Origin: Candidatus Krumholzibacteriia bacterium
Lineage (GTDB): Bacteria; Krumholzibacteriota; Krumholzibacteriia; LZORAL124-64-63
Reading direction: 5' to 3'
DNA: 31,097 bases
NCBI GenBank assembly: GCA_027056825.1
Contig: JALUJS010000173.1
Span: 2,743 to 33,839, forward strand
In this document: piece after piece, positions 2,588 through 30,752 of the stretch
How the letters are laid out: each line of letters opens with the position of its first letter
Position numbering within the stretch: the stretch's first letter is position 1
Program-made: the position numbers and the translations under genes
Notes under the pieces: model-generated
Told to the model about the DNA's origin: nothing
Database searches by the model: none
What the model saw: only the letters and a program-made list of their open reading frames with translations

Positions 2588-2588
2588 G

Positions 2589-3647
2589 ATGAGCGGGAAA
2601 ACATCCCTGGCCCTGTGTGCGACCCTGATCCTCGCCTTCGGGGTGTTCGGCGCCGCTTCCCCTGCGGCGGCCCAGCATGACGCCCACCATGACGCGGCCC
2701 AGGCCCACGAACAGGTCCATCAGCAGGCCGACGAGCACCACGCCCATGATGACGCCGCGGTCGCTCACGCCGGGGATGAGGCCCACGCCGAACACACCGA
2801 ACACACCGAACACGCCGAGCATGGCGAACACGAAGGCGGTCACGCCGGCGCCCACCTGCCCAACCTGGTGAGCCTCATCGCCGAATTGCTGCCGCCTTCG
2901 GTGGCCGCGGTGCTGGAAAACTTCATCGATCCCATCTTCAGCCTGCTCATGGCCCTGCTGGTGAGCATCTTCTTCATCGTGCTGGCCCGGCAGTTGTCGG
3001 TGCGCAACCCCGGCCGCAAGCAGATGTTCGTCGAATTGTTCTTCGGTTGGCTTTACGACCTGTTCCGCGAGGTGCTGGGCGACGAGGCCCGCCGCTACAC
3101 GCCCTACCTGGGCACCCTGTTCATCTTCATCCTGGTGAACAACTTCTGCGGGATGCTGCCCCTGGGTCACTCGGCCACCAGCAGCTTCGCCACCACCACC
3201 TTCGCCCTGGGCGCCCTGACCTTCCTCTACGTGCAGGGCATCGCCCTGAAGAAGAACGGGATCGTGGGCTACCTGCACCACATGGCCGGCTCGCCCACCA
3301 CCGGGCTGGAGTGGGGCTTCTCCGTGCTGCTGTTCCCCCTGCACCTGCTGGGCGAGCTGATCAAGCCCATCAGCCTCAGCCTGCGTCTGTTCGGCAACAT
3401 CTTCGGGGAAGACACCCTGGTGGCCACCATGGTGCTGATGGGAACCGGCATCATCTACAAGTTGACCGGAGCGGGCACCCTTTCGGGTTACCTGCCGGGG
3501 ATTCCCCTGCAGTTCCCGTTCTACTTCCTGGGCCTGTTGTCCAGCACCATCCAGGCGCTGGTCTTCACGCTCCTGTCCACGGTTTACATTGCCCTGTGGC
3601 TCCCCCACGGCGATCACGGCGATCACGGGGAGGCCCACGGGCATTGA
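2589..3647 (+). CDS. atpB: F0 subunit a with N-terminal signal peptide and His-rich extensions
   Basis: PISLSLRLFGNIFGED (essential Arg) and STIQALVFTLL motifs. ATG 2589 follows GAGGA at 2579-2583. Confidence 0.95.
   Translation: MSGKTSLALCATLILAFGVFGAASPAAAQHDAHHDAAQAHEQVHQQADEHHAHDDAAVAHAGDEAHAEHTEHTEHAEHGEHEGGHAGAHLPNLVSLIAELLPPSVAAVLENFIDPIFSLLMALLVSIFFIVLARQLSVRNPGRKQMFVELFFGWLYDLFREVLGDEARRYTPYLGTLFIFILVNNFCGMLPLGHSATSSFATTTFALGALTFLYVQGIALKKNGIVGYLHHMAGSPTTGLEWGFSVLLFPLHLLGELIKPISLSLRLFGNIFGEDTLVATMVLMGTGIIYKLTGAGTLSGYLPGIPLQFPFYFLGLLSSTIQALVFTLLSTVYIALWLPHGDHGDHGEAHGH
2787..2831 (+). repeat. 9-bp tandem repeat x5 (xEH codons) inside atpB
   Basis: GCCGAACAC ACCGAACAC ACCGAACAC GCCGAGCAT GGCGAACAC, encoding AEH-TEH-TEH-AEH-GEH. 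Confidence 0.85.
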
Positions 3648-3723
3648 GGGGGCCGCAAGGCCCGCAACGGCGGGGCAACCCGCGAGCTTGAACGCGCAAC
3701 GCACGCGCCAAAAGGAGACGACA

Positions 3724-3951
3724 ATGACTGGGAACATTGTGGGACTGGCTCTTCCGATTGGTCTGGGCCTGGCGGCCCTGGGTAGCGGACTCGGCCTGGG
3801 CAAGGCCATCGAGGGCGGCATGAACGCCATGGGGCGTCAGCCCGAAGCCATTGGTCAGATCCAGACGGCCATGATCATCGGCTGCGCCTTCATCGAGGCC
3901 CTGACGATCTACTCGCTGATCGCCACCCTCATGCTGATGGGCAAGGTCTAA
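3724..3951 (+). CDS. atpE: F0 subunit c (75 aa), H+-type
   Basis: GLGLG helix, RQPE loop and FIEALTIY carrying the ion-binding Glu. AAGGAG precedes ATG 3724. Confidence 0.97.
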   Translation: MTGNIVGLALPIGLGLAALGSGLGLGKAIEGGMNAMGRQPEAIGQIQTAMIIGCAFIEALTIYSLIATLMLMGKV

Positions 3952-4055
3952 GCGACGGGAACTCATCCCGCGTGCGTTGATCGGAGGGGGACGGCCCGAC
4001 CGTCCCCGCTTCGGCCGACGAAACCGGTTTTTCCCATCCGGAAGGTGAATCCGTC

Positions 4056-4556
4056 ATGGATATGGTAATGCCCAAACTTCCCCAGCTGCTGACCACCGCG
4101 GTGGGCTTCCTGCTGTTCGTGTGGGTGCTGGCCAAGTTCGCCTGGGGTCCGATCCTGAACCTGCTCGACCAGCGGCGCGAGAAGATCGAGTCCGACTTCA
4201 AGGCCGCCGAGTCGAACCTCGCCGAGTCCGAGCAGCTCAAGCACGAGTTCGAACTCAAGCTGAGCGACATCAAGGTCATCGAGCGGGAGAAGGTCCAGGA
4301 GGCGGTCAAGAAGGGCGAGCAGCTGAGCGAGTCCATCGTCACCAAGGCCCGCCACCAGGCCGAGGAAGTCAAGCACAAGGCCGAGCAGGACATCGACATG
4401 GAACTGCACAAGGCCCAGCTCGAGCTGCGGGACTCGGTGGTGGATATGGCCATCGGGGCCGCGGAGAAGGTCATCGGCGAGCGGCTGGACGACGAACTGC
4501 ACCGCAAGCTGATCCTCCAGTACATCGAACAGGTCGGGGAGCAGCCCCATGCGTGA
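4056..4556 (+). CDS. atpF: F0 subunit b
   Basis: N-terminal TM, then WGPILNLLDQRREKI and a charged coiled coil; expected operon position. Confidence 0.95.
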   Translation: MDMVMPKLPQLLTTAVGFLLFVWVLAKFAWGPILNLLDQRREKIESDFKAAESNLAESEQLKHEFELKLSDIKVIEREKVQEAVKKGEQLSESIVTKARHQAEEVKHKAEQDIDMELHKAQLELRDSVVDMAIGAAEKVIGERLDDELHRKLILQYIEQVGEQPHA

Positions 4557-5097
4557 TCGCAAGGTCGCAACGAGATACGCGGGGGCCCTGCTGGCTTCGG
4601 CCAAGGAGGCCGGCGTACTCGACGGCGTGGCCGAGTCGTTCGCCGCGGTTGACGCCGTGGTGCGCGACAACCGCGACCTGGTGGTGTTCCTGGACAGTCC
4701 CCAGGTGCCGGTGGCGGAGAAGAAGAAGCTCCTGAAGGACGTGTTCGGCGGCAAGATCGAGGATCTGCTGCTGACCTTCTTCTACCTGCTGATCGACAAG
4801 AACCGCATCGAGAACCTGCGCGACATCGCCGAGGTCTTCGCCGACCTGGTCGAACAGGAACGCGGGGTGCTGCGCGCGGGCGTGGTCACCGCGGTGCCGC
4901 TGGCCGAGGATCTGGAAGCCTCGCTGCGGGACAAGCTGGCGGCGATGACCGGCAAGACGGTCATCCTGGAAAAGAAAGTCGATCCCGGCGTCATCGGCGG
5001 GGTCTGCGTCACCATGGGGGACAGGATCCTCGACGGCACGGTGCGCGCGAACCTGGACCGGCTGCGCAAGCAGCTTGCAGAGGCCCCGGTACGCTGA
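4549..5097 (+). CDS. atpH: F1 subunit delta
   Basis: VATRYAGAL N-terminus and VDPGVIGG...GDRILDGTV C-terminus. Confidence 0.95.
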   Translation: MRDRKVATRYAGALLASAKEAGVLDGVAESFAAVDAVVRDNRDLVVFLDSPQVPVAEKKKLLKDVFGGKIEDLLLTFFYLLIDKNRIENLRDIAEVFADLVEQERGVLRAGVVTAVPLAEDLEASLRDKLAAMTGKTVILEKKVDPGVIGGVCVTMGDRILDGTVRANLDRLRKQLAEAPVR

Positions 5098-5146
5098 CCC
5101 CTGTCGGCGCCGGGAACCCTGAGAGTATTCAACGAGGAGATGGGCA

Positions 5147-6652
<1,506 letters not shown>

Positions 6653-6690
6653 GCCCGCGGCGCAGCGCAACAGAGCGCAGGAGGTAACCC

Positions 6691-9034
<2,344 letters not shown>

Positions 9035-9037
9035 ACC

Positions 9038-9448
9038 ATGGCCCGGTCCTTCAAGGTCGTGATCGTCACCCCGGACAAGACCGCCTACGAGGGCGAAGCC
9101 ATCTCGGCGGTCATCCCGGGTCTGGCCGGATACATCGGCATCTGGGCGAATCACGCGCCCTTGGTTGCCGCGGTGATCCCCGGGGTGGTGACCCTGAAGA
9201 AGGACGATGCCGGCAGCGAGCTGCGCATGGCCGTGGGCAGCGGTTTCGTCGAGGTCTCGGACAACACGGTCAACCTCATGGTCGAGACCTGCGAGGTCGC
9301 CGGCGAAATCGACGTCGATCGCGCGGAGAAGGCCCTGGAACGCGCCCGTCGCCGCCTGGCCGACATGCAGGAGGACATCGACCGCGAACGGGCCCGCCTG
9401 GCCGTGGCCCGCGCCCAGGCGCGGCTGAGAGCCGCCGGGAAGAAATAA
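9038..9448 (+). CDS. atpC: F1 subunit epsilon
   Basis: IVTPD...GIWANHAPL and a C-terminal helical hairpin. Confidence 0.96.
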   Translation: MARSFKVVIVTPDKTAYEGEAISAVIPGLAGYIGIWANHAPLVAAVIPGVVTLKKDDAGSELRMAVGSGFVEVSDNTVNLMVETCEVAGEIDVDRAEKALERARRRLADMQEDIDRERARLAVARAQARLRAAGKK

Positions 9449-9499: not shown

Positions 9500-9680
9500 G
9501 CGTTGAAAACATGAACAGAGGCGCGTTGAAGACTTATACGCGCGCAACTTGCTGCAAAACAAGAGAATGACCCCGTTTCGCCCCGTGGAGCCCCCGCATC
9601 CGCTGATATTTTCTACGATTTTCAGGGCCAGGAAGGTGTTGAATTTTCCGTAAGTTATTTTGGTACAATATGTTAACAAA

Positions 9681-9697
9681 TTGGCACCTCCAATGCA
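9681..9697 (+). promoter_or_regulatory. Sigma54 (-24/-12) promoter of the GcvH-like gene
   Basis: TTGGCACCTCCAATGCA has GG(9683-84)-N10-GC(9695-96) and an intact TGGCAC core. It lies in an AT-rich stretch 66 nt before the ATG. Confidence 0.75.
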
Positions 9698-9762
9698 ATG
9701 CCTTGGGTGACGAAGGCAATGAAAGGCAGGTCCCGCGAGGGACATAGACGGAGGTAAGAACA

Positions 9763-10428
9763 ATGACTGCGATTCTGGTGATCCTCATGGTCGTCGCGAT
9801 CTTCGCCATCGACGCCATCAAGCTCTCCATCAAGCGCCGCCGCGGTGAGGTCGCCGTTCCCGAAGCGGTCCCCTCCTTCTCCGCGGTGAAGTTCCCCAAG
9901 GGGTTGTTCCTCGGCGAGAACCACAGCTGGGCCCGGCTGACCGAGCTGGGCGAGCTGAAGATCGGCATGGACGAGCTGCTGACCCAAGCCCTCGGCTTCG
10001 TGGACGAAGTGGAGGTCGTCCCGGCCGGCACACGGGTGCGCAAGGGTGATCGCCTGGCCACCATCCACCGCCTGGGCCACAAGATCGAGGTGACTTCCCC
10101 GGTGGACGGCACCGTGGTGGCCATCAACGACAACGCCGTCAACGAGCCCTACGGCGTGCATCAGGACCCTTACGGCCGCGGTTGGCTGGCCACGGTCTGG
10201 CCCACCGAGCACACCGAGGCCCTGCGCGACCTGAAGGTCGGCGAACGGGCCGCCGCCTGGCTGAACCACGAGGTCCAGCGCTTCACCGACTTCCTGGTGG
10301 CCCGCACCAGCCCCGAGATGGTTGGCGCCCTGGCGGCCGACGGTGCCCACCCCCTGGTCGGCGCGGCCTGCAGCCTGGACGAGGACGGCTGGAAGGAGTT
10401 CGAACAGGAGTTCGCCCGGATCCGGTAA
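9763..10428 (+). CDS. Membrane-anchored GcvH-fold protein lacking the lipoyl lysine
   Basis: N-terminal TM. HSWA..KIGMD, SPVDGTVVAIN and DPYGRGWL match the glycine cleavage H fold. Carries an extra C-terminal domain. Confidence 0.85.
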   Translation: MTAILVILMVVAIFAIDAIKLSIKRRRGEVAVPEAVPSFSAVKFPKGLFLGENHSWARLTELGELKIGMDELLTQALGFVDEVEVVPAGTRVRKGDRLATIHRLGHKIEVTSPVDGTVVAINDNAVNEPYGVHQDPYGRGWLATVWPTEHTEALRDLKVGERAAAWLNHEVQRFTDFLVARTSPEMVGALAADGAHPLVGAACSLDEDGWKEFEQEFARIR

Positions 10429-10447
10429 TCCGGGGCCAGCCGAACGC

Positions 10448-10477
10448 GCGAGGGGAGGCCATACGGCCTCCCTTCGC
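10448..10477 (+). terminator. Hairpin, probable terminator of the GcvH-like gene
   Basis: GCGAGGGGAGGCC-ATAC-GGCCTCCCTTCGC, a 13-bp stem with one G-U pair, followed by a weak TGTTGT tail. Confidence 0.6.
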
Positions 10478-10517
10478 TGTTGTGCGCGTGGACCCTGGGT
10501 CTCAAATATCTAGATCC

Positions 10518-10559
10518 TTGCCCAGACAATTATTTCAATTGCAATAATTGCCTGGGCAA
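10518..10559. repeat. 42-bp near-perfect palindrome
   Basis: TTGCCCAG-A-CAATTATT-T-CAATTG-C-AATAATTG-C-CTGGGCAA; 19 of 21 symmetric pairs are complementary. Confidence 0.9.
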
Positions 10560-10644
10560 CTATTTAAAAAAACAAGGGACACGACCAGCGCTCGTGTTGC
10601 ACTCAATCAAAAAATACGATCACATGTTTGCTCAGCTACGGATC

Positions 10645-11070
10645 CTACTCCGGAACCCGTCCCTCACCCAGCTCCGGGCCCGCGGGCAGGGCCTTGCGCT
10701 CATGGCAGTCAACGCACGCCACCGGCCCGGCGTCCTCCACGCGATGACAGCCGATGCAGCGCTGGTGGTAGGCCATCTTCAGCGCGGGGGTCTCCGGTTC
10801 GGCGGGGTCGAATTCCTCGCCGTGGCAGTCCGCGCAGGCGATGATGTCGTCGGGGCCGTCGCCGTGGTGGTGGCAGTCGGCGCAGGACTCGGCCAGATCT
10901 ACATGATCGGCATGGGGGAACTCCACCGGACCGAACCAGTAACTCAAGCCGTCGATGGCCACGGTGTCGGGCCCGGTGTCTTCGGGTGTCTGCGCCGTCA
11001 GGGTCGGGGCGCAGAGCAGCAGGCAGGCGGATACGCAGATCAGGACCGCAAGCGACGGTGCGATTCTCAT
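10645..11070 (-). CDS. Tetraheme cytochrome c3 (class III), secreted
   Basis: Sec-type signal. FPHADH distal His pair, and CADCHH, CADCH, YHQRCIGCH, CVDCH heme motifs. Confidence 0.9.
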   Translation of the reverse strand: MRIAPSLAVLICVSACLLLCAPTLTAQTPEDTGPDTVAIDGLSYWFGPVEFPHADHVDLAESCADCHHHGDGPDDIIACADCHGEEFDPAEPETPALKMAYHQRCIGCHRVEDAGPVACVDCHERKALPAGPELGEGRVPE

Positions 11071-11644
11071 GGTTGATCTCCTTTCAGGAAGAACGAAAGG
11101 ATCCCGTCCCGGGGCACGCCCATGATCTCGCTACAGGGCTCGCAGTAGGACGGATCCTTCAGGTCGACGTGTTCGGGCAGAAGCGAGGCGCTCATGGCGC
11201 ACCAGGGAACCTGGCAATGCACGAGGTTGAAGGTGTGGCCGAGCTCGTGGAGGACCTCCTTGAGGATGCGCAGGCGCATGATCTGGGGATCGGCGCGGTC
11301 CCCCTCGAATTCCGGGCGCAGGCGGTGAACCGAGGCCACGCCCACCCGGCCCTTGAGCTGGGCGCTGCCCAGGACGTGGGCGAACACCGGCAGGAACAGG
11401 TCCACGTCGGTCACCCCGATGCGGCGGTGCGCACCCTCGAGAGGGGGCTCCTGCAGCATTGCCAACAGACGGGAGGCCGAGTACTGCCGCCTTTCTTCCG
11501 AGAAGGCCTCGGCGGGGGACAACTCGAAGTCCGCGATCCACACCGGGTGGGCCAGGCACACGGCCAGGTCGCCCCGCAGCCGGCGCAGAAGGGCGGGGGC
11601 CACCGCACCCACCCGGACCAGTTCGAGTCCCCACGGGGCCACGG

Positions 11645-11648
<4 letters not shown>
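11067..11648 (-). CDS. Archaemetzincin-like Zn metalloprotease
   Basis: HELGHTFNLVH zinc motif, CQVPWCAM Met-turn and CEPC Cys cluster; 193 aa, no signal peptide. Confidence 0.85.
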
Positions 11649-12987
<1,339 letters not shown>

Positions 12988-12991
<4 letters not shown>

Positions 12992-14586
12992 GAGCTTTCC
13001 CTTTCGCTTGCGGCGCCCGCGTCCTCGGGCAGGAAGATGGTGAAGCGGCAGCCCTCGCCCGGCGCGGTGTCCAGGTCGATGCGCCCGCCATGCCGCTTGA
13101 CGATGCCGTAGACCACCGACAGCCCCAGGCCCACTCCGGAGCCTTCGCTCTTGGTGGTATAGAAGGGTTCGAAGGCGTGACGGGCAACCTCGGGCTCCAT
13201 GCCTGGTCCGTTGTCGGCGACCTCGATGGTGACCCCGCCGGGGGCCCGTGCGGTGGCCAGGGTGATCTTGCCTCCCTCGGGCATGGCCTGGGCCGCGTTG
13301 ATGATCAGGGCCATGAGGAACTGCTGCACCTGGTTCTGGTCCGCGATGATCTCGGGCAGGTCCGGGGCGAAGCGGCGCTCCGCTTCCACGGAGTTGAGTT
13401 CGAGCTGGTGGTTCACCAGGAACAGGGCGTTCTCGATGGTGGCGTTGACGTCCATGGGCGCCAGCTCCTCGTTGCCGCGCCGGGCGAAGGCCAGCAGCTG
13501 GGAGACGATCTTGCCGCACCGGGCCGCCTCGTCCGAAATGGCCTCCAGGTAGGTCAGGTTCTCCTTGCACTCGTCGGTGAGCTCGTCCTGCTTCTTCAGC
13601 CTCCGGACCACCGTCTTGGCGTAGGTCACCACGCTGGCCAGGGGGTTGTTGATCTCGTGGGCCACCACCGCGGCCAGCTTACCCAGCGAGGCCATCTTCT
13701 CCACCTGCAGCATCTGGTCCTGGGCGCGGACGAGCTCGTCGGCCTTGGCCTGGACGCGCTGCTCCAGGGTCCGGCCCCACTCCAGCAGCTCGTTGCGGGC
13801 GTTCTGCAGGTCCAGGGCGAGCTGGTTGAAGGTGCGGTCCAGGGTGCCGATCTCGTCCTGGGAACCCTCGGCCACGCGCACGGTCAGGTCGCCGGCGGCC
13901 AGGCGCCGCGTCTGGTCGATGAGGGTGCGCACACGGCGGAAGACGATCTGTCGCCCCGCCAGGTACACCACGATCACCGCCAGCAGGATGCTGACCAACC
14001 CCACCAGGCCCGTGCCCCGCGCGACGGCGCGCCGGGCGGCCTCGAAGGGCTCGAGGTTCAAATCCACGTCCATGACCCCCAGCAGGGGGCCGTCCTGCTC
14101 GTGGTAGTGGCAGGCCGCGGTGGCACACGAGGGTTCGTTGAGCAGGGCGTGGGTGACCGCGAGCATGCGGCGGCCATCCTGGACCACGGTCTGCGCCCTC
14201 TCGTCCGGCGGCAGGGAGTTGGGGAGCACGACCCGGCCGTGGCAGACCAGGCACTGGGCCTGGGTGGTGTCCAGGATGGCGCCGATCTCCGCGTGGCGCG
14301 TGGAGTAGGCGATCAGGCCCTGCTTGTTGTAGATGCGGATGCGTTCGATATCACGCTGCGCCCCGAAATTGTCCAGCGTCTCCTGGATCTTCTCCCGGTC
14401 GTTCTGCAGCATGGCGGTGCGCAGCACGGCCGCGGCGGTCTCGGCCAGCTGCACGCCGTTCTTCTGGACGATGGCGGTGGAGGCCCGCTCCTGGAGAGCC
14501 AGGTTGACCATGGTCATGGCCGCGAAGATCACCGCCAGCAGACCGGTCGTGATCAGCGTCATCTTGGCCGCGACGGTGAGCTTCAT
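12988..14586 (-). CDS. Membrane sensor histidine kinase (HAMP-HisKA-HATPase) with c-type heme motifs in the periplasmic domain
   Basis: Two TM segments. CLVCH and CATAACH lie between them. H-box AHEINNPL, then DNGPG, FYTTK and GLGL boxes. Confidence 0.93.
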
Positions 14587-14616
14587 GGCGGGCCTCCTCT
14601 CACGGGTCCGGACCGG

Positions 14617-15792
14617 TCACCCGGAGTGCCGGTTCAGTTCGACGAACGGGTCCACGGGCCGGGCGTTGGTCAGCGGGCCTTCCTCGAACACCGGCAGGTA
14701 CCGCGCCGCCAGGCTGAACAGGAACACGCCGATGGCGATCATGCCCATGGAGACCACGAACTCCATCCAGTGCGGCCGGTATCCCGCGCCCGTGCCGAGC
14801 TGGAACGCGGTCACCGCCACGTTCATGCGGTTGAACATGATTCCCAGCACGACCAGGAACTGGGTCCCGGTCAATGCCAGCGGATTCCGCCGCACCCGCT
14901 TCTGGAACAGCAGGAGCATGGGTACGACGCCGCCGATGATGATCTCGGCCAGGAAGAACCACGAAGCCTGGTCGAAGCGGAAGGCCAGCGGCAAGGTGCC
15001 GTGCACGAGGAGATCCTCGATGCGGATCACAAGGTAGAGCAGGAGCATGACCGCCGTGGCGCGCCCGATGCCGCGCAGCAGGGGCGCCTCCAGGCGTTTG
15101 CCGAAGGCGCGGAAGCTGAGGAAGGACTCCACGTTGGTCATGGCCAGGCCCAGGGTGATGGCCGAGACGAAGAACAGGATGGGCAGGATCGGCGAGTACC
15201 ACAGGGGGTGCAGCTTCTCCGGCACGATCACGTACAGGGTGCCCAGGCTGCTCTGGTGCATGGTCGACAGCAGGACGCCGGCGATGACCAGGCCCGGCGT
15301 CAGGTACTTGTGCATGAAGTGCACCTGCCGGTTGTAGCCCAGCCGCTCGAAGACCAGCGGCAGGAATTCCAGGAACAGCACCGTGGTGTAGAGCATCACG
15401 CACCAGCCCACCTCGAACATCACCGAGTGGGGGTTCCAGAAGATCAGCGGATGCCAGATGTTCCAGGGACGCCCGAGGTCCACCAGCAGCGCCGCGATGA
15501 CCATCAGGTAGCCCAGGAAGGCGGTCAGCACCGCGGGGCGGGCCATGGGCTTGTAGTCCTCCAGGTGGAAGATGTAGACCACGGCCGTCACGGTGAAGCC
15601 GCCGGCGCCCAGGGCCACGCCGCACAGCAGGTCGAAGCCGATCCACAGGCCCCAGGGCATCGAATCGTTGAGATTGCTGATGGCGCCGATGCCGCCGGTG
15701 TACCTACGGAAAAGAACGACCGCCAGCAGGATCATGAGCAGGGTGAAGACGGTGGCCCAGAAATGGGGCCGGGGCAGCTTGCGCTCAGTCAT
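14617..15792 (-). CDS. NrfD-family integral membrane subunit (HybB/HmcC-like)
   Basis: PWGLWIGFD...GVALGAGG, DLGRPW, SVMFEVGWC, HQSSLG; about 10 TM helices. Confidence 0.9.
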   Translation of the reverse strand: MTERKLPRPHFWATVFTLLMILLAVVLFRRYTGGIGAISNLNDSMPWGLWIGFDLLCGVALGAGGFTVTAVVYIFHLEDYKPMARPAVLTAFLGYLMVIAALLVDLGRPWNIWHPLIFWNPHSVMFEVGWCVMLYTTVLFLEFLPLVFERLGYNRQVHFMHKYLTPGLVIAGVLLSTMHQSSLGTLYVIVPEKLHPLWYSPILPILFFVSAITLGLAMTNVESFLSFRAFGKRLEAPLLRGIGRATAVMLLLYLVIRIEDLLVHGTLPLAFRFDQASWFFLAEIIIGGVVPMLLLFQKRVRRNPLALTGTQFLVVLGIMFNRMNVAVTAFQLGTGAGYRPHWMEFVVSMGMIAIGVFLFSLAARYLPVFEEGPLTNARPVDPFVELNRHSG

Positions 15793-16549
15793 GGTTGTCC
15801 TCCCCTTCCTGGATCTGCCGGCGCTCGTGCGCGGCGACCTCGACCTTGCGGTTGCCCAGCCAGTACATCCCGCCCAGGAAGACGCCCCACACGGGGATGA
15901 TCTGGGGCAGCTTCTCCAGGACCGTCCAGGTCAGGTGCGGCATGTCGTGTTCCGGAACGTTGTCCGGTAGGTCGGATTCGGAGGCGGGCTTGCTCAGCAG
16001 CATGAGCACGCCGGTGCCGCCGGCTTCCTTCTCACCGTATACCTCGCCAGTGTACCGCTGCGGGTCCGCCTTGAGGCGGCGGTGCGCCTCGGCCAGCATG
16101 GCCTCGCGGGTGCCGAAAGTCGTGGCGCCGGTGGGGCAGATGCTGGCGCACGCGGTGGGCAGGCCCTTGGTCACGCGGTGCACGCACATGTCGCACTTGC
16201 GCACGCGGGGGTTGGGACTGTGCCACTCGTACTTGGGGATTTCGAAGGGGCAGGCCATCATGCAGTAGCGGCAACCGATGCACTTCTTGGCGTCCCAGGT
16301 CACCGGGCCCAGGGGATTCTTCTCCAGGGCTCCCACCGGGCACACCGAGACGCAGGTGGGGTTCTCGCAGCTCATGCAGAGATGGCGGGCGTACTGGTCG
16401 TTGCCGAGGTCCTCGACCCAGGTGAACGACTCGTGGTCGAGCTTGTCCGGCTTGTGCGGACGCTGGTCGTGCTCGGACTGGCAGGCCTGTTCGCAGGCCC
16501 CGCATCCGATGCACCGACTCTGATCAAAGAGCAGGGCATAGGTGGACAT
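15785..16549 (-). CDS. 4x[4Fe-4S] electron-transfer subunit (HybA/FdnH/DmsB-like) with C-terminal TM anchor and no Tat leader
   Basis: 16 Cys in the canonical arrangement (CIGCGACEQAC, CMSCENPTCVSVCP, CIGCRYCMMACP, KCDMC...ACASICP). AAGGAG precedes ATG 16549. Confidence 0.92.
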   Translation of the reverse strand: MSTYALLFDQSRCIGCGACEQACQSEHDQRPHKPDKLDHESFTWVEDLGNDQYARHLCMSCENPTCVSVCPVGALEKNPLGPVTWDAKKCIGCRYCMMACPFEIPKYEWHSPNPRVRKCDMCVHRVTKGLPTACASICPTGATTFGTREAMLAEAHRRLKADPQRYTGEVYGEKEAGGTGVLMLLSKPASESDLPDNVPEHDMPHLTWTVLEKLPQIIPVWGVFLGGMYWLGNRKVEVAAHERRQIQEGEDNHD

Positions 16550-16855
16550 GGATGCTCCTTTGGGTGGCGGCAATGTTCGCAAACACCAGGACCGTTGAAT
16601 AATTCAATTGTACTACCTGTTGTCCATTATCAAGTTAAAAGTTTAACAAACTCCTAGAGAAGTGGTGTTAGATGATATTCAACCTCTTTTTTTACAGCGT
16701 GTTATGCGATTTCAGATGAAGGGTTTTCGTAGAAAATTTTTACACACCCCTCTTCGTGTCCTTTCCGGGAAGCCCTTGATCCTTGGGGTATGGGGGGTTA
16801 GCTTCCCTGTGTTACACCATCGCCGGGTGAGATCCCGGCTGGCCGGAGGGCGTCC

Positions 16856-17173
16856 ATGCCGGAATTCTCAAGCGGAAAGATCACCGTCGAACTTGACGAC
16901 AAGGGTTACCTGGTGGACGGGTCGGCCTGGACGCCCCAGGTCGCCGCGGCCCTGGCCGAGGCCGACGGGCTAGGTGAGTTGACGGAGGATCACTGGAAGG
17001 TCATCGATTTCCTGCGCTCCTTTCATGCCGAGCACGGGGCCGCCCCCATGATCCGGGTACTTTGTCGGGAAACCGGCCTTTCCCTGCAGCGGATCTATGA
17101 CCTGTTTCCCGCCGGGCCGGCCAAGGGAGCCTGCCGGGTGGCGGGTTTGCCGCGGCCGGATTCCTGCGTGTGA
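16856..17173 (+). CDS. DsrC/TusE-family sulfur relay protein with both C-terminal cysteines (C-X10-C)
   Basis: DDKGYL..W, HWKVI, LFPAGP, GACRVAGLPRPDSCV. GGAGG ribosome-binding site. Confidence 0.9.
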   Translation: MPEFSSGKITVELDDKGYLVDGSAWTPQVAAALAEADGLGELTEDHWKVIDFLRSFHAEHGAAPMIRVLCRETGLSLQRIYDLFPAGPAKGACRVAGLPRPDSCV

Positions 17174-17530
17174 TTGTTTTTTCCAGATTCTTTACCTGGG
17201 GTGGCGCGTTTCTGAAGTTGTTGTTATTTCGGAAGTAAAGGCCATTATACAGTATACAATCCTCTGACGCAGTTCATCTTGCGGTCACAGTCCACCTTGG
17301 CTCCGTGGTCATCCAATTGCTACTGGGTCAGGGGTAGATCCAGGTGGACTGTCATCTCCTGCCGGCTGGCCACAATTTCAAGGGCACAAGAAAAATTTCA
17401 AGAAGGTTGTTTTTTTGTTTACAACCCCCACGTCATTTGGTTTAATCGGATAAGCCTATCCTATTTATGTGAAAAATCCGGGGTTTGCTTCATTGCTGCG
17501 GGCCGTTCGGCCGGAACCAAGGGGTGTGAG

Positions 17531-20302
17531 ATGACTCTGACTCGTCGGGACTTCATCAAGCGGGCCGCGGCCGTCAGCGCGGCCGGCGCCATCGGGATGA
17601 ACCTGTCGCCCGCGGACCTGGCCCAGGCCTCGGAAGCGGAAAAGGGCTGGAAGTGGGACAAGTCGGTGTGCCGGTTCTGCGGCACCGGCTGCGGCCTGAT
17701 GATCGCCACGAAGAACGACCGCATCGTGGCGGTCAAGGGGGACCCGGCGGCTCCGGTGAACAGGGGTTTGAACTGCATCAAGGGCTACTTCAACGCCAAG
17801 ATCATGTACGGGCGGGACCGCCTGACCAAACCCCTGCTGAGGGTCAATTCCCGGGGCGAGTTCGACAAGAAGGGCAAGTTCCAGGAGGTGTCCTGGGACA
17901 AGGCCTTCGATGTCATGGCCGCGCAGTTCAAGAAGCATTACCAGGCCTTGGGCCCTGCGGGGATCGGGGTGTTCGGGTCGGGGCAATACACGGTCCAGGA
18001 AGGCTACGCCATGGTCAAATTGGTCAAGGCGGGCCTGCGCAGCAACAACATCGACCCCAACGCCAGGCACTGCATGGCCAGCGCCGTGGTGGGTTTCATC
18101 CAGGCCTTCGGCATCGACGAACCCGCCGGCAACTATGACGACATCGAGTATACCGACAGCGCCGTGCTCTGGGGCGCGAACATGGCCGAAATGCATCCCA
18201 TCCTCTGGTCTCGCATCACCGACCGCAAACTGTCCAACCCCGACCGGGTCAAGATCGTCAACCTCACCACCTACCGGAACCGCTGCTCCAACCTGGCCGA
18301 CCTGGAGATCATCTTCAAACCCCAGACCGACCTGGCCATCTGGAACTACATTGCGCGGGAAATCGTCTTCAACCACCCCGAGGCCATCGACCGCGAGTTC
18401 GTGGACAAGTACACGGTGTTCGCCACCGGGCACGTGGACGTGGGCTACGGCATGCGCGACAACCCGGAGCACCCCGCATACAGCGAGGCCGAGCGCGAAA
18501 CCATGCGCAAGCAGAAGACCAAGACCGTCAGCAGGGCCGAGGGCGTGACCCTGGCCCACCTTGGCTACAAGGAGGGCGACGAGCTGCAGATGAAGCACGC
18601 CGCCGCCGCCGGCAAGCATTGGCTCATCTCGTTCGAGGAATTCAAACGGGGGCTGGAACCCTACACCTTGGACTTCGTGGCCGAACTGTCGCGGGGAGAC
18701 GCCGACGAACCCCTGGAGCAACACAAGGCCAAGCTGAAGCAGCTCGCGGAGATCTACATCGAGAAGGGCCGCAAGGTCGTCAGCTACTGGACCATGGGCA
18801 TGAACCAGCATACCCGCGGCAGTTGGGTGAACGAGCAGGCATACATGGTGCACCTGCTGCTGGGCAAGCAGGCCCAGCCCGGCAACGGCGCCTTCAGCCT
18901 CACCGGCCAGCCCAGCGCCTGCGGGACGGCCCGCGAGGTGGGCACCTTCGCCCACCGCCTGCCCGCCGACATGGTCGTGGCCAACCCCAAGCACCGCGAG
19001 CGGGCCGAGAAGTTGTGGAAACTGCCTGCCGGCACCCTCAACGGCAAACCCGGCAGCCACTACACCAAGCTCATGCGCGACATCGAGGACGGAAAGATCA
19101 AGTGGGCCTGGGTGCAGGTCTGCAATCCCTGGCAGAACACGGCTAACGCCAATCACTGGATCAGGGCCGCCCGTGAAATGGACAACTTCATCGTCTGCTC
19201 CGACGTGTACCCGACGGTCTCGGCCAAGGTGGCGGACCTGATCCTGCCCAGCGCCATGATCTTCGAGAAGTGGGGGGCGTACGGTAACGCCGAGCGGCGC
19301 ACCCAGCACTGGAAACAGCAGGTCACCCCCGTGGGCGAGGCCATGCCCGACATCTGGCAGGCCATGGAGTTCGCCAAGCGCCTCACCCTGGGCGAGGTGT
19401 GGAAGGAGTGGAAGATCAGCGACTCGTTGACCCTGCCCGACGTCCGGGCCGAGGCGCGGAGCATGGGCTACAAGGACGACGACACCCTCTTCGACGTGCT
19501 GTTCGCCAACGAGGAGGCGCGAGGCTATTCCTGGCCCGACCCGGTGGGCGCGGGTTCCCTCAACACGCTGGCCGAGGGCGACAAGCGCAAGGTCGCCGGG
19601 TTCGAGGGCTACGGCTTCTTCGTGCAAAAATACCTGTGGGAGGAATACCGGAAGTTCGGCGTCGGGCACATGCACGACCTGGCTTCATTCGACGCCTACC
19701 ATGAGGCGCGCGGCCTGAAGTGGCCGGTAATCGACGGCAAGGAGACGGCCTGGCGTTTCAACGCCGAGTACGATCCCTACGCCGCCAAGGCGGGGACGGG
19801 AAAGTTCGCGTTCTACGGACCTGCCCTCAAGGCCCTGCCGTCCGGCGATCTGGCCGGCCCCCGCAAGGGCGACAAGACGCCGCTGCCGAACAAGGCCAAG
19901 ATTTTCTTCCGACCCTACATGGATCCTCCGGAGACGCCCGGGGGCGACTATCCCTTCTGGCTGGTGACCGGCCGCGTGCTGGAGCACTGGCACACCGGTA
20001 CCATGACCATGAGGGTGCCCGAGCTGCACCGGGCGGTGCCCGAGGCCCGCTGCTTCATGAACGGCGCGGACGCGCGCGGCATGGGCCTGAACGACGGGGA
20101 CCCGGTGTGGGTGGAGAGCCGCCGCGGCAGGATCAAGGCCCGGGTCCAGATCCGGGGCCGCAACGTCATGCCCAAGGGGATGGTGTTCGTGCCGTTCTTC
20201 GACGAGCGCGTGCTGATCAACAAGGTCTGCCTGGACGCCACCTGTCCCATCTCCAAGGAGACGGACTTCAAGAAGTGCGCCGTCAAGGTCACCCGGGCCT
20301 AG
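17531..20302 (+). CDS. napA: Periplasmic nitrate reductase catalytic subunit
   Basis: Tat signal [15 protein letters not shown] FeS motif, ARHCMASAV Mo ligand, [24 protein letters not shown]-terminus; 923 aa. Confidence 0.97.
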
Positions 20303-20306
20303 GCGC

Positions 20307-21086
20307 ATGACCGGGCGCGAAGGCATGGACCGGCGGAGCTTCCTGGCCGGGATGTTGAAGGGCGCGGCCGCCTCCGCGGTCGGGGGCGTGGTCTGGGGCG
20401 GTCTGGTCGCGGGGATGGACCGCGCTCCACTGGTTCTGCGTCCTCCCGGCGCCCTGGCCGCGGACAATTTTCCGGCCACCTGCATCCGGTGCGGCCGCTG
20501 CGTGGCGGCCTGCCCCTACGATACGCTGGAACTGGCCACGCCGGGCCGGCCCGGCCCGGTGGGCATGCCGGCCTTCACTCCACGCAAGACGCCCTGCTAT
20601 CTCTGCCAGGATATTCCCTGCACGGCGGCATGCCCCAGCGGAGCCCTGGACCCGTCGTCGGTGTGCGACGAGACCGGCGCGCCGGATATCACGCGGGCGC
20701 GCATGGGCGTGGCGGTCATCGACTACACGAACTGCATCGCGGCCTGGGGGCTGCGGTGCGACGTGTGTTATCGCGTGTGCCCCCTGGTGGACAAGGCCAT
20801 CCTGCTGGAGATGACCCGCAACGAACGCACCGGCCGGCACGCCCGTCTTGTGCCGAGGATCGACCCGGAGCATTGCACCGGATGCGGCCTGTGCGAGCAC
20901 GCCTGCGTGGTGGAGAAGGCCGCCGTCTTCGTCCAGCCCCGCGAAGTCGCCCTGGGCAGGGTGGGCGACCAGTATATCCGCGGTTGGGACCGGGCCGACG
21001 AGCGGCGTCTGCGCCAGGATGCCGTCCAGCCTCCGGAGGGCGACCCCCTCGACTATCTCAACGGGGGTGGACTGGATGATGAGTAG
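20307..21086 (+). CDS. napG: Ferredoxin-type quinol dehydrogenase subunit NapG
   Basis: RRSFL leader, LRPPGA and four Cys cluster motifs. Alternative start at 20325. Confidence 0.93.
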   Translation: MTGREGMDRRSFLAGMLKGAAASAVGGVVWGGLVAGMDRAPLVLRPPGALAADNFPATCIRCGRCVAACPYDTLELATPGRPGPVGMPAFTPRKTPCYLCQDIPCTAACPSGALDPSSVCDETGAPDITRARMGVAVIDYTNCIAAWGLRCDVCYRVCPLVDKAILLEMTRNERTGRHARLVPRIDPEHCTGCGLCEHACVVEKAAVFVQPREVALGRVGDQYIRGWDRADERRLRQDAVQPPEGDPLDYLNGGGLDDE

Positions 21087-21891
21087 GCTGCTTCGGCATC
21101 GTTACCTGATCGCCCGGCGGATCCTTCAGGCCGGGATCCTCGTGTTGCTGGCAGGCGGCAACCTCTACGGCTGGCCGGTGCTGGTGGGCGATCTGAGCCA
21201 TTCGCGGTTGCTGGGGACGGTGCCGTTCTCCGATCCGTTCGCCGTGGCGCAGCTTCTTGTCGCCGGCGGGGTTCTGGCCGGCGATGTCCTGCTGGGGGCG
21301 GTCCTGGTGCTGGCCTTCTACGCCCTGGTGGGCGGTCGCACATTCTGCGCCTGGGTCTGTCCGCTGAACGCGGTCACGGACCTTGCCAACCGGCTGGGAA
21401 CCGGTCGGCGCGGCACGCATCCACGGACGGGACGCGCCGTTCGCTATTGGGTGCTGGGGTTGGCGCTGGTTGTCTCGGCGGTGGCGGGAACGGCGGCCTT
21501 CGAGGCCGTCAGTCCCATCGGCATGCTGCACCGGGGGGTGATTTTCGGCATGGGTGCGGGCTGGGCTGCGGTTGCCGCGGTGTTCCTGTTCGACCTGGCC
21601 GTGATGCACAACGGATTCTGCGGGCGGCTCTGTCCCCTGGGAGCCTTTTACGCCCTGATCGGTCGTTTCGGGTTGTTGCGGGTCCGGCACGACCACACCG
21701 TCTGCACCCATTGCCTGGAATGCCTGCGGGTGTGTCCGGAGAACCAGATCCTGCAGCAGGTAGGGCGGGTCAGCGGTACCATCAACAGGGGGGTCTGCAC
21801 CAATTGCGGACGTTGCATCGAAGTGTGTGATGACGACGCGCTGGGGTTTCGCATTCGTGGCAGAGCACTTTCCGAACGAACCGGAGGTTGA
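21076..21891 (+). CDS. napH: Quinol dehydrogenase membrane subunit NapH
   Basis: TM helices, FCAWVCP and FCGRLCP motifs, two C-terminal ferredoxin motifs. Start moved to 21076 (21079 is an alternative). Confidence 0.93.
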   Translation: MMSRLLRHRYLIARRILQAGILVLLAGGNLYGWPVLVGDLSHSRLLGTVPFSDPFAVAQLLVAGGVLAGDVLLGAVLVLAFYALVGGRTFCAWVCPLNAVTDLANRLGTGRRGTHPRTGRAVRYWVLGLALVVSAVAGTAAFEAVSPIGMLHRGVIFGMGAGWAAVAAVFLFDLAVMHNGFCGRLCPLGAFYALIGRFGLLRVRHDHTVCTHCLECLRVCPENQILQQVGRVSGTINRGVCTNCGRCIEVCDDDALGFRIRGRALSERTGG

Positions 21892-21893
21892 CA

Positions 21894-22466
21894 ATGATGA
21901 GGAAGAAGCACTTCTGGCTGTCGGCGGCCGCCTGGGTCTCCCTGCTGCTCCTGGTCGCGGGCTGCGGGGGAACCGGCGCCGGAAATATTCCCGCACGGGA
22001 TGCCGCGCAGGATTCGCCGGCGGTGGTCGGGGACGAGGATCTCAGCTACCGCAACACTCCCCTGGAGTCGGCGGCGGTCACCCCTGCTGTCCAGCCTGTG
22101 GCGACCGAGCCCGGCGACTCCCGGACCGTGCCGCGTTCCTTCGAGAACGCGCCGCCGGTGATTCCCCACACGGTGGAGGGGCTGCTGCCCATCACCGCGG
22201 CGGACAACCAGTGCACCGAGTGCCATCTGCCGGACATGGCGGAAGACGCGGGGGCTCCGTCCATCCCGGCCAGCCACATGTATGACATACGCCGCGACCG
22301 CAAGTTGACCAGCCTGAACCCGGCCAACTACAACTGCACCCAGTGTCACGCCATGCAGACCGACGCGGGAGAACTTGTCGCCAATTCCTTCACTCCGGAT
22401 TTCCGTTCCGATAAGGGGATGAAGGAGTCGGATCTGCTGGAGAGGCTCAACGAAGGTGTCCGGTGA
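21894..22466 (+). CDS. napB: Diheme cytochrome c NapB, probably a lipoprotein
   Basis: FENAPPVIPH, CTECH, YNCTQCH. Lipobox-like LVAGC; GGAGG before ATG 21894. Confidence 0.93.
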   Translation: MMRKKHFWLSAAAWVSLLLLVAGCGGTGAGNIPARDAAQDSPAVVGDEDLSYRNTPLESAAVTPAVQPVATEPGDSRTVPRSFENAPPVIPHTVEGLLPITAADNQCTECHLPDMAEDAGAPSIPASHMYDIRRDRKLTSLNPANYNCTQCHAMQTDAGELVANSFTPDFRSDKGMKESDLLERLNEGVR

Positions 22467-22473
22467 CCGGGTC

Positions 22474-22980
22474 ATGAATCCGTCCCGGCGGCGCTGGTTG
22501 CGCGGGCTGATGAATCCGGCCGCCTGGTGGCGCGGGGGAGGGAGCGTGCCCCTGCCTGGCATGGCTGATCCGCCGGCCGCACGCCCGGTCTGCAAGGCTT
22601 GCAGCGCGTCCGCTCCCGGCGCGGGCCCGCCTTGCGCGGCGGTGTGCCCCGAGGATATCGTGCGGGTCGGCGACGACGGATTGCCGGGCCTGGATTTTGC
22701 CCGTTCCGGCTGCACCTTTTGCGGGGACTGCGCCGCAGCTTGCCCGCACGCCGTCCTGGAATCCGGGCCGCAGGCGCTGATTCGGGCCTCCATTACCCTG
22801 GACCGCGGCAGTTGCCTGGCCTGGTCCTCCACCATGTGCCGGGCCTGCCTGGATTCATGCCCGGAGGACGCCGTCCGCTTCAAGGGCCTGCTGAAGCCGG
22901 CCATCGATGGCAAGAGCTGCACCCGCTGCGGATTCTGCGTGGGCGCCTGCCCGGTGGACGCCATCGGGATCGGGGTGTGA
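22474..22980 (+). CDS. napF: Ferredoxin-type protein NapF
   Basis: SRRRWL N-terminus; CTFCGDCAAACP, CLAWSSTMCRACLDSCP and CTRCGFCVGACP motifs. Confidence 0.85.
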   Translation: MNPSRRRWLRGLMNPAAWWRGGGSVPLPGMADPPAARPVCKACSASAPGAGPPCAAVCPEDIVRVGDDGLPGLDFARSGCTFCGDCAAACPHAVLESGPQALIRASITLDRGSCLAWSSTMCRACLDSCPEDAVRFKGLLKPAIDGKSCTRCGFCVGACPVDAIGIGV

Positions 22981-23008
22981 TGCGAATACGACGCGGAGGA
23001 GAGGAATC

Positions 23009-23260
23009 GTGAACATCTCCAGCATCATTGTCACCTGCCGGCCGGAGCACATGGCCGAGGTCGAGGCCTCCCTCCGGGAGAGCGGACTGTGCGATGTCCA
23101 CTTCCGGGATGAAAAAGGGCACATCATCGTGACCGTGGAGGAAGATGCCGCCGGCGACGAGACCGGAAAGCTCAAAGCCATCGCCGACCTTCCCCACGTG
23201 GCCGACGCGGTCTTCTCCTACACTTGCTGCGAGGAGGGACCGGAAGACGGCACGACATGA
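23009..23260 (+). CDS. napD: NapA chaperone NapD
   Basis: MNISSIIV...EKGHIIVTVE pattern; GTG start after GAGGA; last gene of the nap operon. Confidence 0.88.
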   Translation: MNISSIIVTCRPEHMAEVEASLRESGLCDVHFRDEKGHIIVTVEEDAAGDETGKLKAIADLPHVADAVFSYTCCEEGPEDGTT

Positions 23261-23488
23261 TAAATCCTCAATCCGTATAAGGACCACCCATATATTCCAC
23301 GGTTTTCGTGGGAGATAAGAAACGAAACGGATTCTCATAACCACCTTTAAAACTGTCAGTTAAGACCCCATTTTTGTTTTGGATTAACCCCCTTCAATGA
23401 CTACCTTTCGACAGTCAATTAACATCGAAACTTAAAAATTCTTCCACAGGCCGGGACCGCCGGACCTGCCCAACTGGAAGGAACGCTG

Positions 23489-23989
23489 ATGAAACGCCTG
23501 GGCCTGTTCCTGTTCATCACCGCGGCGCTGTGGCTGTTCTGGCTGGTGTTCGTGGGGAACCTCGATCCGCAGGAGATGCTGGTGGGCGCCGTGGCCGCGG
23601 CCCTGGTCACCCTGCTGCGCAGCGGGCAGCCCTGCCTGCTGGAGAACGTCAACTTCCTGAATCCCCGCCGCGTCTTCATGGCCCTGGCCTACATCCCCTA
23701 CATGATCTGGGCCATCATCGTGGCGAACCTGGACGTGGCGCGGCGGGTCGTCCAGCCCCGGCTGGACATCAACCCCGGCATCGTCCGCATCAAGACCCGT
23801 CTGAAGAATCCCGTGGCCCGGATGATCCTGGCCAACAGCATCACCCTGACCCCAGGCACCCTGACGGTCGAGGTGTCCGGGGACGACCTGTACATCCACT
23901 GGATCGATGTGCACGCGCAGGACTCCGAAGCCGCGTCGCGGGAGATCGCCGCCGGCTTCGAGAAATACCTGGAGGTCATCTTTGGTTGA
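23489..23989 (+). CDS. mnhE: Mrp/Mbx subunit E (MbxA/MbsA-like)
   Basis: NPGIV...LANSITLTPGTLTVEV..LYIHW. Confidence 0.93.
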   Translation: MKRLGLFLFITAALWLFWLVFVGNLDPQEMLVGAVAAALVTLLRSGQPCLLENVNFLNPRRVFMALAYIPYMIWAIIVANLDVARRVVQPRLDINPGIVRIKTRLKNPVARMILANSITLTPGTLTVEVSGDDLYIHWIDVHAQDSEAASREIAAGFEKYLEVIFG

Positions 23990-24242: not shown

Positions 24243-24243
24243 G

Positions 24244-29159: not shown

Positions 29160-29163
29160 GACC

Positions 29164-30075: not shown

Positions 30076-30076
30076 G

Positions 30077-30745: not shown

Positions 30746-30752
30746 GTGGACG

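Follow-up and report, generated by a model that had tools for sequence, protein, structure and literature searches.

Why should an iron-sulfur and NrfD protein pair, of the sort that links the quinone pool to the periplasm, share an operon with a haem-motif histidine kinase, a sigma-54-dependent regulator and a zinc protease, and with no catalytic subunit? This question is raised by a stretch of 31,097 nucleotides from a Candidatus Krumholzibacteriia bacterium (GenBank assembly GCA_027056825.1, contig JALUJS010000173.1, positions 2,743 to 33,839 of the forward strand), here called the window. Six genes on its minus strand encode, in order, an iron-sulfur (FeS) protein, an NrfD-family membrane protein, a sensor kinase, a sigma-54 regulator, an archaemetzincin and a tetrahaem cytochrome c3, and they are met by a converging gene for a membrane-anchored protein with the fold of the glycine-cleavage H protein (GcvH). 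We find that this gene set is one copy of a widely distributed cassette and not a chance neighbourhood. Its invariant core consists of the haem kinase, the regulator and the protease, and the quinone module and GcvH-like proteins are the usual companions of that core. For the function of the whole, the reading that we favour, at a probability of about one half, is a self-regulated, non-catalytic redox module between the quinone pool and the periplasm. The genes concerned are:

15785-16549, minus strand: iron-sulfur subunit of 254 residues with four [4Fe-4S] motifs (16 Cys in the four cluster motifs)
14617-15792, minus strand: NrfD-family quinone-interacting membrane subunit of the HybB/HmcC type, 391 residues, about 10 transmembrane helices (Pfam NrfD)
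12988-14586, minus strand: sensor histidine kinase of 532 residues with HAMP, HisKA and HATPase domains and the motifs CxxCH and Cx4CH
11645-12991, minus strand: NtrC-type sigma-54-dependent response regulator of 448 residues (Response_reg, Sigma54_activat, AAA_lid_14, HTH_8)
11067-11648, minus strand: archaemetzincin (M54), a cytoplasmic zinc protease of 193 residues (Pfam Peptidase_M54)
10645-11070, minus strand: tetrahaem cytochrome c3, periplasmic, 141 residues with a signal peptide (Pfam Cytochrom_CIII, four CxxCH)
9763-10428, plus strand: membrane-anchored GcvH-fold protein without the lipoyl lysine, 221 residues (Pfam GCV_H)

The DNA has a G+C content of 65% and hence many spurious open reading frames, from which the coherent gene set was chosen by codon-position G+C. 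Read directly from the letters, the FeS and NrfD genes overlap by 8 nt (ATGACTGA), a 30-nt gap separates NrfD from the kinase gene, and the three later junctions are ATGA overlaps. An earlier note on this DNA had described the same six-gene unit, the converging GcvH-like gene and a sigma-54-type -24/-12 element before the latter; open reading frames, family matches and the reading of the junctions place all of these where it had put them.

The earlier note had also staked its proposal on the genes occurring together in other genomes, and this they do, as 20 loci within the phylum and 80 across phyla show in the main. The closest relatives are metagenome-assembled genomes of Krumholzibacteriia. 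Within the phylum the protease was matched in 48 of 201 sampled genomes, and 20 of these loci were fetched; kinase, regulator and protease stand together in all 20, with the FeS-NrfD pair and the GcvH-like gene in most. The usual order in the phylum is GcvH-like, FeS, NrfD, kinase, regulator and protease on a single strand. Beyond the phylum, one genome per species was scanned with a six-sequence protease alignment, which gave at least 594 loci with a related protease, and the best 80 of these were analysed. They span about a dozen phyla, among them Acidobacteriota, Ignavibacteriota, Gemmatimonadota, Bacteroidota, Zixibacteria, Desulfobacterota, Clostridia and Cloacimonadota. The sigma-54 regulator is adjacent to the archaemetzincin in 74 of the 80 loci, as is the kinase (74/80), and the regulator is 52-57% identical across phyla. 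In the 48 loci with complete flanks, profile hidden Markov model searches detected the haem sensor domain in all 48, FeS and NrfD in 42 and a GcvH-like gene in 36 (a GcvH-like gene only in 5, FeS-NrfD only in 11, neither in 1). The loci are related, and neither these counts nor the later ones can be treated as independent.

No hydrogenase, active molybdoenzyme or HmcF/DsrK-like subunit accompanies this type of cassette in the other genomes. There is also a second version, in which the same trio and GcvH-like genes occur with a Qrc-like module composed of a pentahaem cytochrome, a molybdopterin-like protein bearing a twin-arginine translocation (Tat) signal, an FeS protein and an NrfD protein. 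This distribution turns round the earlier picture of a protease and a two-component system embedded in an electron conduit: the trio forms the constant core, with FeS-NrfD and the GcvH-like genes as attachments. A lineage-specific inversion was considered as the origin of the convergent GcvH-like gene and rejected, the same layout being found in three Terriglobales loci (L112, L122 and L131).

Of the three core proteins, the kinase carries two haem c motifs, CLVCH at residue 112 and CATAACH at residue 154. This pair of CxxCH and Cx4CH is found in 64 of 73 homologues, with C154, C159 and H160 invariant. Its periplasmic sensor domain is modelled as a PDC/PAS-like fold with a predicted local distance difference test score (pLDDT) of 87, and Foldseek matches it to WalK, KinD, DctB and CitA and to the haem c sensor domains of Geobacter GSU0935 and GSU0582. 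As modelled, the sensor is a PDC-fold domain with conserved haem-attachment motifs, and haem binding is predicted. The two Geobacter proteins (PDB 3B42 and 3B47) share with it the PDC/PAS-like periplasmic fold and a c-type haem motif (Foldseek E 7e-5 and 4e-3, 18-19% identity), but they are chemoreceptors with one CxxCH, whereas the kinase combines CxxCH with an invariant Cx4CH, and structurally the cassette domain is nearer to the haem-free WalK, KinD and DctB. The regulator has the composition of an NtrC-type protein, with a receiver domain, an AAA+ domain (Sigma54_activat, 232 bits) that includes GAFTGA at residue 219, and HTH_8. The archaemetzincin scores 65.6 bits with Pfam Peptidase_M54 (threshold 24.4) and narrowly misses an NCBIfam subfamily cut-off (126 vs 145). 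Its motif, HELGHTFNLVHCQVPWCAM...CEPC, corresponds to HExxHxxGxxHCx4CxM...CxxC with Asn at the Gly position, and 17 homologues show no variation in its HExxH...H and Cys4 residues. Judged from these residues the metal sites of the protease are intact, and proteolysis is predicted.

The FeS protein is nearest to HmcB and HybA in NCBIfam and family matches, and the NrfD protein to HmcC and HybB. The latter scores 91.5 bits with Pfam PF03916 (gathering score 25.8) and shares 33% identity with E. coli HybB across 361 residues. Asp109 and Ser129 of HybB are quinone-site residues according to a review of NrfD proteins (PMC8076601). Asp109, the acid on TM2, and Ser129 align with D105 and S123 of the window's protein, both invariant in 26 cassette homologues, and on this alignment the quinone site is intact. 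The FeS protein is 36% identical to E. coli HybA in an alignment that runs from HybA residue 37 onward, and thus lacks the signal peptide. It has a C-terminal transmembrane helix and no Tat signal. The Tat signal is absent also in about 40 window-like FeS homologues, whereas clear RRxF signals mark a more distant subtype whose cassettes are similar in other respects. The missing signal might suggest an FeS domain that faces the cytoplasm, but this is not favoured; the domain most likely faces the periplasm, because the NrfD loops have the same K+R bias (14 vs 7) with either FeS subtype and the FeS tail after the transmembrane helix is basic. In two Cytophagia cassettes (L064:4176-5771 and L086:4302-5993) the NrfD frame runs into a segment with three CxxCH motifs, an apparent fusion of NrfD with a trihaem cytochrome.

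The cytochrome of the window is a class III tetrahaem protein, with 51.4 bits for Pfam Cytochrom_CIII (threshold 22.9) and CxxCH at residues 63, 79, 105 and 119; it misses the TmcA equivalog cut-off (49.9 vs 114 bits). The earlier note had taken it as part of the conduit, a view that does not survive the comparison. A cytochrome of at least three haems lies within 10 kb in only 14 of the 80 cross-phylum loci, and in none of the 80 does a cytochrome directly follow the protease gene, an arrangement seen in close relatives only. The c3 is a lineage-specific addition and not a part of the core. In other Krumholzibacteriota the cassette lies beside genes for a porin-like protein of about 455 residues, a 12-haem cytochrome and a cytochrome of 4-8 haems (L036:6904-10022, L038:885-3574, L042:849-2516 and L048:17652-19457), a layout that resembles the porin-cytochrome conduits of extracellular electron transfer.

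The GcvH-like protein consists of an N-terminal transmembrane helix, an H-protein core and a conserved helical C-terminal extension of about 60 residues. It scores 66.7 bits with Pfam GCV_H and stays below two NCBIfam cut-offs (66.5 vs 117 and 58.5 vs 116). Its model (pLDDT 88) superposes on solved H-proteins with a TM-score of 0.93 and a root-mean-square deviation of 1.5 A at 24-30% identity. The fold is that of the glycine-cleavage H protein and of lipoate-binding LbpA, but the membrane anchor and the C-terminal extension set the protein apart from both, as does Gly105, which replaces the lipoyl Lys of the (E)SVK hairpin in an alignment to the genome's own canonical GcvH, encoded elsewhere. 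No Cys or Lys is conserved among 30 GcvH-like homologues, and neither gcvT, gcvP nor lipoate ligase genes lie near the gene. The sequence KRRR follows the N-terminal helix, and the GcvH-like domain would therefore be cytoplasmic. Many cassettes have a second class of GcvH-like protein, encoded between NrfD and the kinase (L060:6038-6817, L075:5657-6493, L089:5888-6715 and others), in which a Cys-rich N-terminal segment (C..W...YKLCD...C..C.FD) replaces the transmembrane helix; no copy of this class was found in the window.

The regulation of the cassette can be approached through the following elements:

9682-9697, plus strand: sigma-54-type -24/-12 promoter TGGCACCTCCAATGCA (TGGCAC-N5-ATGCA) before the GcvH-like gene, 66 nt before its ATG
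9501-9517, no strand assigned: candidate regulator-binding palindrome CGTTGAAAACATGAACA, a 10/12 match to TGTTGA-N5-TCAACA, 165 nt before the -24 element
9525-9530 and 9638-9643: further GTTGAA half-sites
9730-9743, plus strand: hairpin GTCCC-GCGA-GGGAC in the 5' untranslated region, just before the ribosome-binding site of the GcvH-like gene
16593-16609, no strand assigned: palindrome TTGAA-TTA-TTCAA (CGTTGAATAATTCAATT on the plus strand), possible second regulator-binding site, about 45 nt before the FeS start
16599-16626, minus strand: sigma-70-like promoter hexamers before FeS, overlapped by the palindrome at 16593-16609

Alone, the -24/-12 motif is only modestly significant. It is the window's sole match to TGGCAY-N5-WTGCW, and shuffled sequences give a mean of 0.12 matches, with at least one in 12 of 100 shuffles. 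The promoter is made credible by its position 66 nt before the ATG and by its conservation, TGGCA and ATGC being invariant in 10 orthologous upstream regions that elsewhere are only about 60% identical. Similar elements lie about 90-100 nt before the GcvH-like genes of distant members of the phylum. Across phyla, elements that match at 10 or more of 12 positions are found 47-105 nt upstream of 11 of 81 GcvH-like genes, compared with 0.6% of background windows, and the Terriglobales loci with the convergent layout have TGGCAC-N5-ATTGCC 68-73 nt upstream of the GcvH-like gene. The gene rpoN is present in the genome. The earlier suggestion that the GcvH-like gene is a likely sigma-54 target is strengthened by the conservation of the promoter in orthologues and by its enrichment across phyla; that the regulator of the cassette binds there we infer. 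The hairpin in the 5' untranslated region is found at the same place in 10 orthologues with stems that vary (TCCC/GGGA, TTCC/GGAA, TTTC/GAAA, GGCC/GGCC), changes that are compensatory by eye and have weak RNAalifold support.

Farther upstream, GTTGAA/TTCAAC half-sites are conserved in 11 orthologous upstream regions of the window's family. An unbiased 6-mer enrichment in an independent set of 22 cross-phylum promoter regions placed this half-site at the top, with CAACAG in 14 of the 22 (13% in the background), TCAACA in 11 (12%) and GTTGAA in 11 (15%). The palindrome TGTTGA-N5-TCAACA is perfect in two Gemmatimonadales loci and matches at 10 or more of 12 positions in 11 of the 22 regions, as against 2.1% of background windows, a score taken on the same set on which the palindrome was defined. 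It is probably the site to which the regulator would bind. Nine strict -24/-12 matches occur in the genome, and three upstream half-sites accompany only the one at the GcvH-like gene; no wider regulon can be demonstrated from these nine matches in the assembly, which is 86% complete. Another of the nine, at G000 C445:494(+) before a Dps-like gene, is itself preceded by two GTTGA/TCAAC half-sites, which hints weakly that the regulator may have a second target.

No sigma-54 element was found before FeS in the window, nor within 400 nt upstream of FeS in 26 of 28 loci in which FeS leads. For this reason the FeS operon of the window appears to be driven by an ordinary promoter, with the GcvH-like gene alone as the inducible output. 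The sequence TGAA-N3-TTCAAC occurs once in the 3.18-Mb assembly, in the palindrome before FeS at 16593-16609, and is kept in two genus-level relatives. In the collinear layout of other genomes, one sigma-54 promoter would drive all genes. The earlier proposal of a module that regulates itself is thus borne out only for the collinear arrangement found elsewhere; in the window the six-gene operon is without a sigma-54 promoter of its own.

How might such a cassette work? In the self-regulated, non-catalytic redox module that we favour, FeS-NrfD would exchange electrons between the menaquinone pool and the periplasm, here by way of c3, and would do so without catalysis, like Nhc, Qrc and Cbc4. 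The kinase would read the redox or ligand state of the periplasmic chain through its covalently bound haem or haems. Once phosphorylated, the regulator would bind TGTTGA-N5-TCAACA-type sites and open the sigma-54 promoter of the GcvH-like gene, a step for which promoter and motif are conserved and binding is presumed. The GcvH-like protein, with its cytoplasmic domain on a membrane anchor, would act on the module from the inner face, and the substrate of the protease may be a member of the signalling trio or the GcvH-like protein.

Several observations weigh against this reading. For one, 66 of the 80 loci are without a multihaem gene within 10 kb, so that a quinone-to-cytochrome conduit cannot be the general role of the cassette unless its partners lie elsewhere in the genome. 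No Tat signal is present on the FeS protein, nor does the cassette supply a carrier for it, and its periplasmic placing is read from charge bias alone. On the regulatory side, the nine strict -24/-12 matches in the genome compare with about 7-8 expected by chance on our own base-composition estimate, and the palindrome is a post hoc definition scored on related, non-independent loci.

The rarity of neighbouring cytochromes leads to a different account, in which the FeS-NrfD pair is the input wire of the sensor and poises the kinase haems at the potential of the quinone pool. The whole cassette would then be a quinone-pool redox sensor, with the GcvH-like protein and possibly other sigma-54 genes as its output. 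We consider this, the main rival, unlikely. In nearly all loci the kinase gene comes straight after NrfD, and it encodes the sole haem protein within 10 kb in 66 of the 80; kinase, regulator and protease form the invariant core, and this same trio is found with quinone modules of two kinds, an Hmc/Hyb-like one and a Qrc-like one that has a Tat-bearing molybdopterin-like subunit. The trio occurs, however, without a nearby FeS-NrfD pair in 6 of the 48 full loci, and the added cytochromes or porin-cytochrome neighbours in this and several lineages suggest real electron flow. An FeS protein with four clusters and an NrfD protein with 10 helices would also be heavy equipment for a sensor, and we know of no kinase that is wired through FeS-NrfD.

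A more conventional alternative starts from the lack of a catalytic subunit. The earlier note had treated a set of FeS, NrfD and cytochrome without such a subunit as unexplained, but there are precedents in Nhc and Qrc of sulfate reducers (PMC8076601) and in Cbc4 of Geobacter (10.1101/2025.04.14.648717), which are FeS/NrfD/cytochrome modules of this composition. The window might accordingly encode a cytochrome c:menaquinone oxidoreductase of the ordinary Nhc/Cbc4 type, to which a regulator is linked; the GcvH-like protein and the protease would then be accessory or maturation factors, and the mechanism would hold nothing new. By sequence, the FeS, NrfD and c3 proteins belong to the HybAB/HmcBC/Nhc branch; the nearest families of the first two are HmcB/HybA and HmcC/HybB, the c3 is translationally coupled within the operon, and the known modules of this sort lack catalytic subunits. 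Against it, no curated cut-off is reached, whether for Hmc, Hyb, Qrc, Dsr or Tmc subunits in NCBIfam; across the family the cytochrome is dispensable and the protease and haem kinase are not; and the described Nhc, Hmc, Qrc and Cbc loci have not been reported with GcvH-like or archaemetzincin genes. On balance we find this account doubtful, somewhat more so than that of a quinone-pool sensor.

With the Nhc and Hmc complexes of Desulfovibrio the cassette shares a periplasmic class III multihaem cytochrome, a four-cluster FeS protein, a 10-helix NrfD protein and the lack of a catalytic subunit, and the best NCBIfam matches of its FeS, NrfD and c3 proteins are HmcB, HmcC and HmcA/TmcA. It differs from them in its scores (HmcB 224.4 vs 420 bits, HmcC 320.4 vs 550 bits), in a cytochrome with four haems instead of nine or sixteen (the nine-haem NhcA model gives 46 bits vs a cut-off of 640 on the cassette c3), in an FeS protein without a Tat signal, and in the lack of HmcD, HmcE, HmcF and NhcD, there being no cytochrome b or HdrD-like gene in 9.4-17.2 kb. 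A further difference from both complexes is the obligatory linkage of the cassette to the trio of haem kinase, sigma-54 regulator and archaemetzincin and to GcvH-like proteins. HybA/HybB of E. coli hydrogenase-2, at 36% and 33% identity, resemble the cassette pair in the C-terminal transmembrane anchor of the FeS subunit and in the Asp and Ser of the quinone site, but the pair stays below their cut-offs (195.8 vs 263 and 307 vs 450 bits), has no HybA signal peptide and is accompanied by no hydrogenase or maturation genes in the cassette. Qrc and Dsr subunits are farther off (QrcC 75.5 vs 400, QrcD 162 vs 570, DsrO 105 vs 200, DsrP 33 vs 350). Cbc4 (CbcSTU) of Geobacter sulfurreducens, a putative quinol:cytochrome c oxidoreductase, likewise unites a tetrahaem cytochrome, a four-cluster FeS protein and a membrane subunit without a catalytic subunit (10.1101/2025.04.14.648717). 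In this comparison, which is by description only, CbcS is a membrane-anchored NapC/NirT-type cytochrome as opposed to the soluble c3 of the window, and GcvH-like, protease and haem-kinase partners are not reported for Cbc4 (10.1101/2025.04.14.648717). We found no published description of a cassette that combines a haem kinase, a sigma-54 regulator, an archaemetzincin and lipoate-free H-proteins.

A molybdoenzyme does lie next door. A distance of 730 bp separates the FeS gene from the start of a complete nap operon (17279-23260, plus strand: napA, napG, napH, napB and probable napF and napD), in which NapA, at about 17531-20302 on the plus strand, scores 1393 bits against a cut-off of 904. It lies just beyond positions 9681-16549, the coordinates given in the earlier note. 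The absence of a catalytic subunit claimed there holds for the cassette across genomes, but the neighbouring molybdoenzyme was overlooked, together with a dsrC-like gene. NapA is not the missing catalytic subunit of the cassette, because nap has its own quinol-oxidising pair, NapGH, and is not linked to the cassette elsewhere. In two close relatives of the same genus (L001 and L002, 70-91% identity across the cassette proteins) NapA was not found within 4.4 kb of the cassette, and the 80 cross-phylum loci yielded neither NapA nor DsrC; a link between nap and the cassette was rejected on these grounds. It is very improbable, too, that FeS-NrfD serves the adjacent NapA, with which the FeS protein, having no signal of its own, might also cross the membrane: the operon starts 730 bp away and NapA has the Tat signal that FeS lacks, but the NapG/NapH quinol dehydrogenase pair and the absence of NapA from the two relatives and the 80 loci speak against it. 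NapA itself comprises about 923 residues from its Tat-signal start at 17531, about 90 more than the 830-position model, with an insertion that stretches the Pfam molybdopterin domain across residues 181-701.

Between the cassette and napA, and directly upstream of the latter, lies a gene of the DsrC/TusE family (16856-17173, plus strand) whose product has a CX10C tail with two cysteines. It runs divergently from the FeS gene, 300 bp beyond the FeS start, and is the assembly's only DsrC-family match. Its adjacency to FeS is kept in the genus, L001 and L002 retaining dsrC with the cassette, and was seen once beside a Qrc-like cassette (L049). As a general feature a DsrC link was rejected on its absence from the 80 cross-phylum loci. 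A DsrOP-like module that works with a divergent DsrC-like protein in thiol or sulfur redox chemistry draws on the promoter region that this gene shares with FeS and on its retention in the genus and at L049, but is hardly credible with no DsrC in the 80 loci, no dsrA found in the 86%-complete assembly, no DsrK/HdrD-like protein to act on DsrC, and DsrO and DsrP only as weaker family matches.

The remaining features of the window lie between the converging genes or outside the cassette. The two transcription units end at putative hairpins:

10579-10597, minus strand: terminator-like hairpin after c3, at the end of the six-gene operon
10453-10472, plus strand: GC-rich hairpin GGGAGGCC-ATAC-GGCCTCCC with a T-rich tail, likely terminator of the GcvH-like gene (from direct reading; not listed by the consensus scan)

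An inverted repeat of 17 bp, nearly perfect and AT-rich at its centre (TTGCCCAGACAATTATT / AATAATTGCCTGGGCAA, 10518-10559), also lies between the GcvH-like and c3 genes. It is present in a single copy in the genome and is no repeated element, and it is not kept in L001. On the far side of the GcvH-like gene lie an atp operon (2505-9448) and a gene for a GAF/HD/hemerythrin protein (218-1900). Beyond nap, a Mrp/Mbx-like membrane complex (23423-31097, plus strand) is encoded, with MnhE, MnhB/MbhE, a fused antiporter-like subunit of 1060 residues, and NuoH-like and NuoB-like subunits.

NrfD-type modules are central to anaerobic respiration, and the sensing of the quinone pool is a long-standing question in bacterial physiology. 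The cassette described here, present in hundreds of genomes of Acidobacteriota, Bacteroidota, Ignavibacteriota, Gemmatimonadota, Desulfobacterota, Krumholzibacteriota and others, ties an NrfD module to a haem-based kinase. Its most far-reaching interpretation, which we offer tentatively and think improbable as a whole, is a new signalling device in which an FeS-NrfD redox wire would couple the quinone pool to the kinase haems, a GcvH-fold sigma-54 output would gate or retune NrfD from the cytoplasmic side, and the archaemetzincin would reset the circuit by proteolysis. To our knowledge, neither archaemetzincins nor lipoate-free H-proteins have a known role in bacteria. The cassette provides the first genomic context for both, and so candidate substrates and partners, while the conserved promoter and the TGTTGA-N5-TCAACA palindrome offer concrete handles on the circuit.

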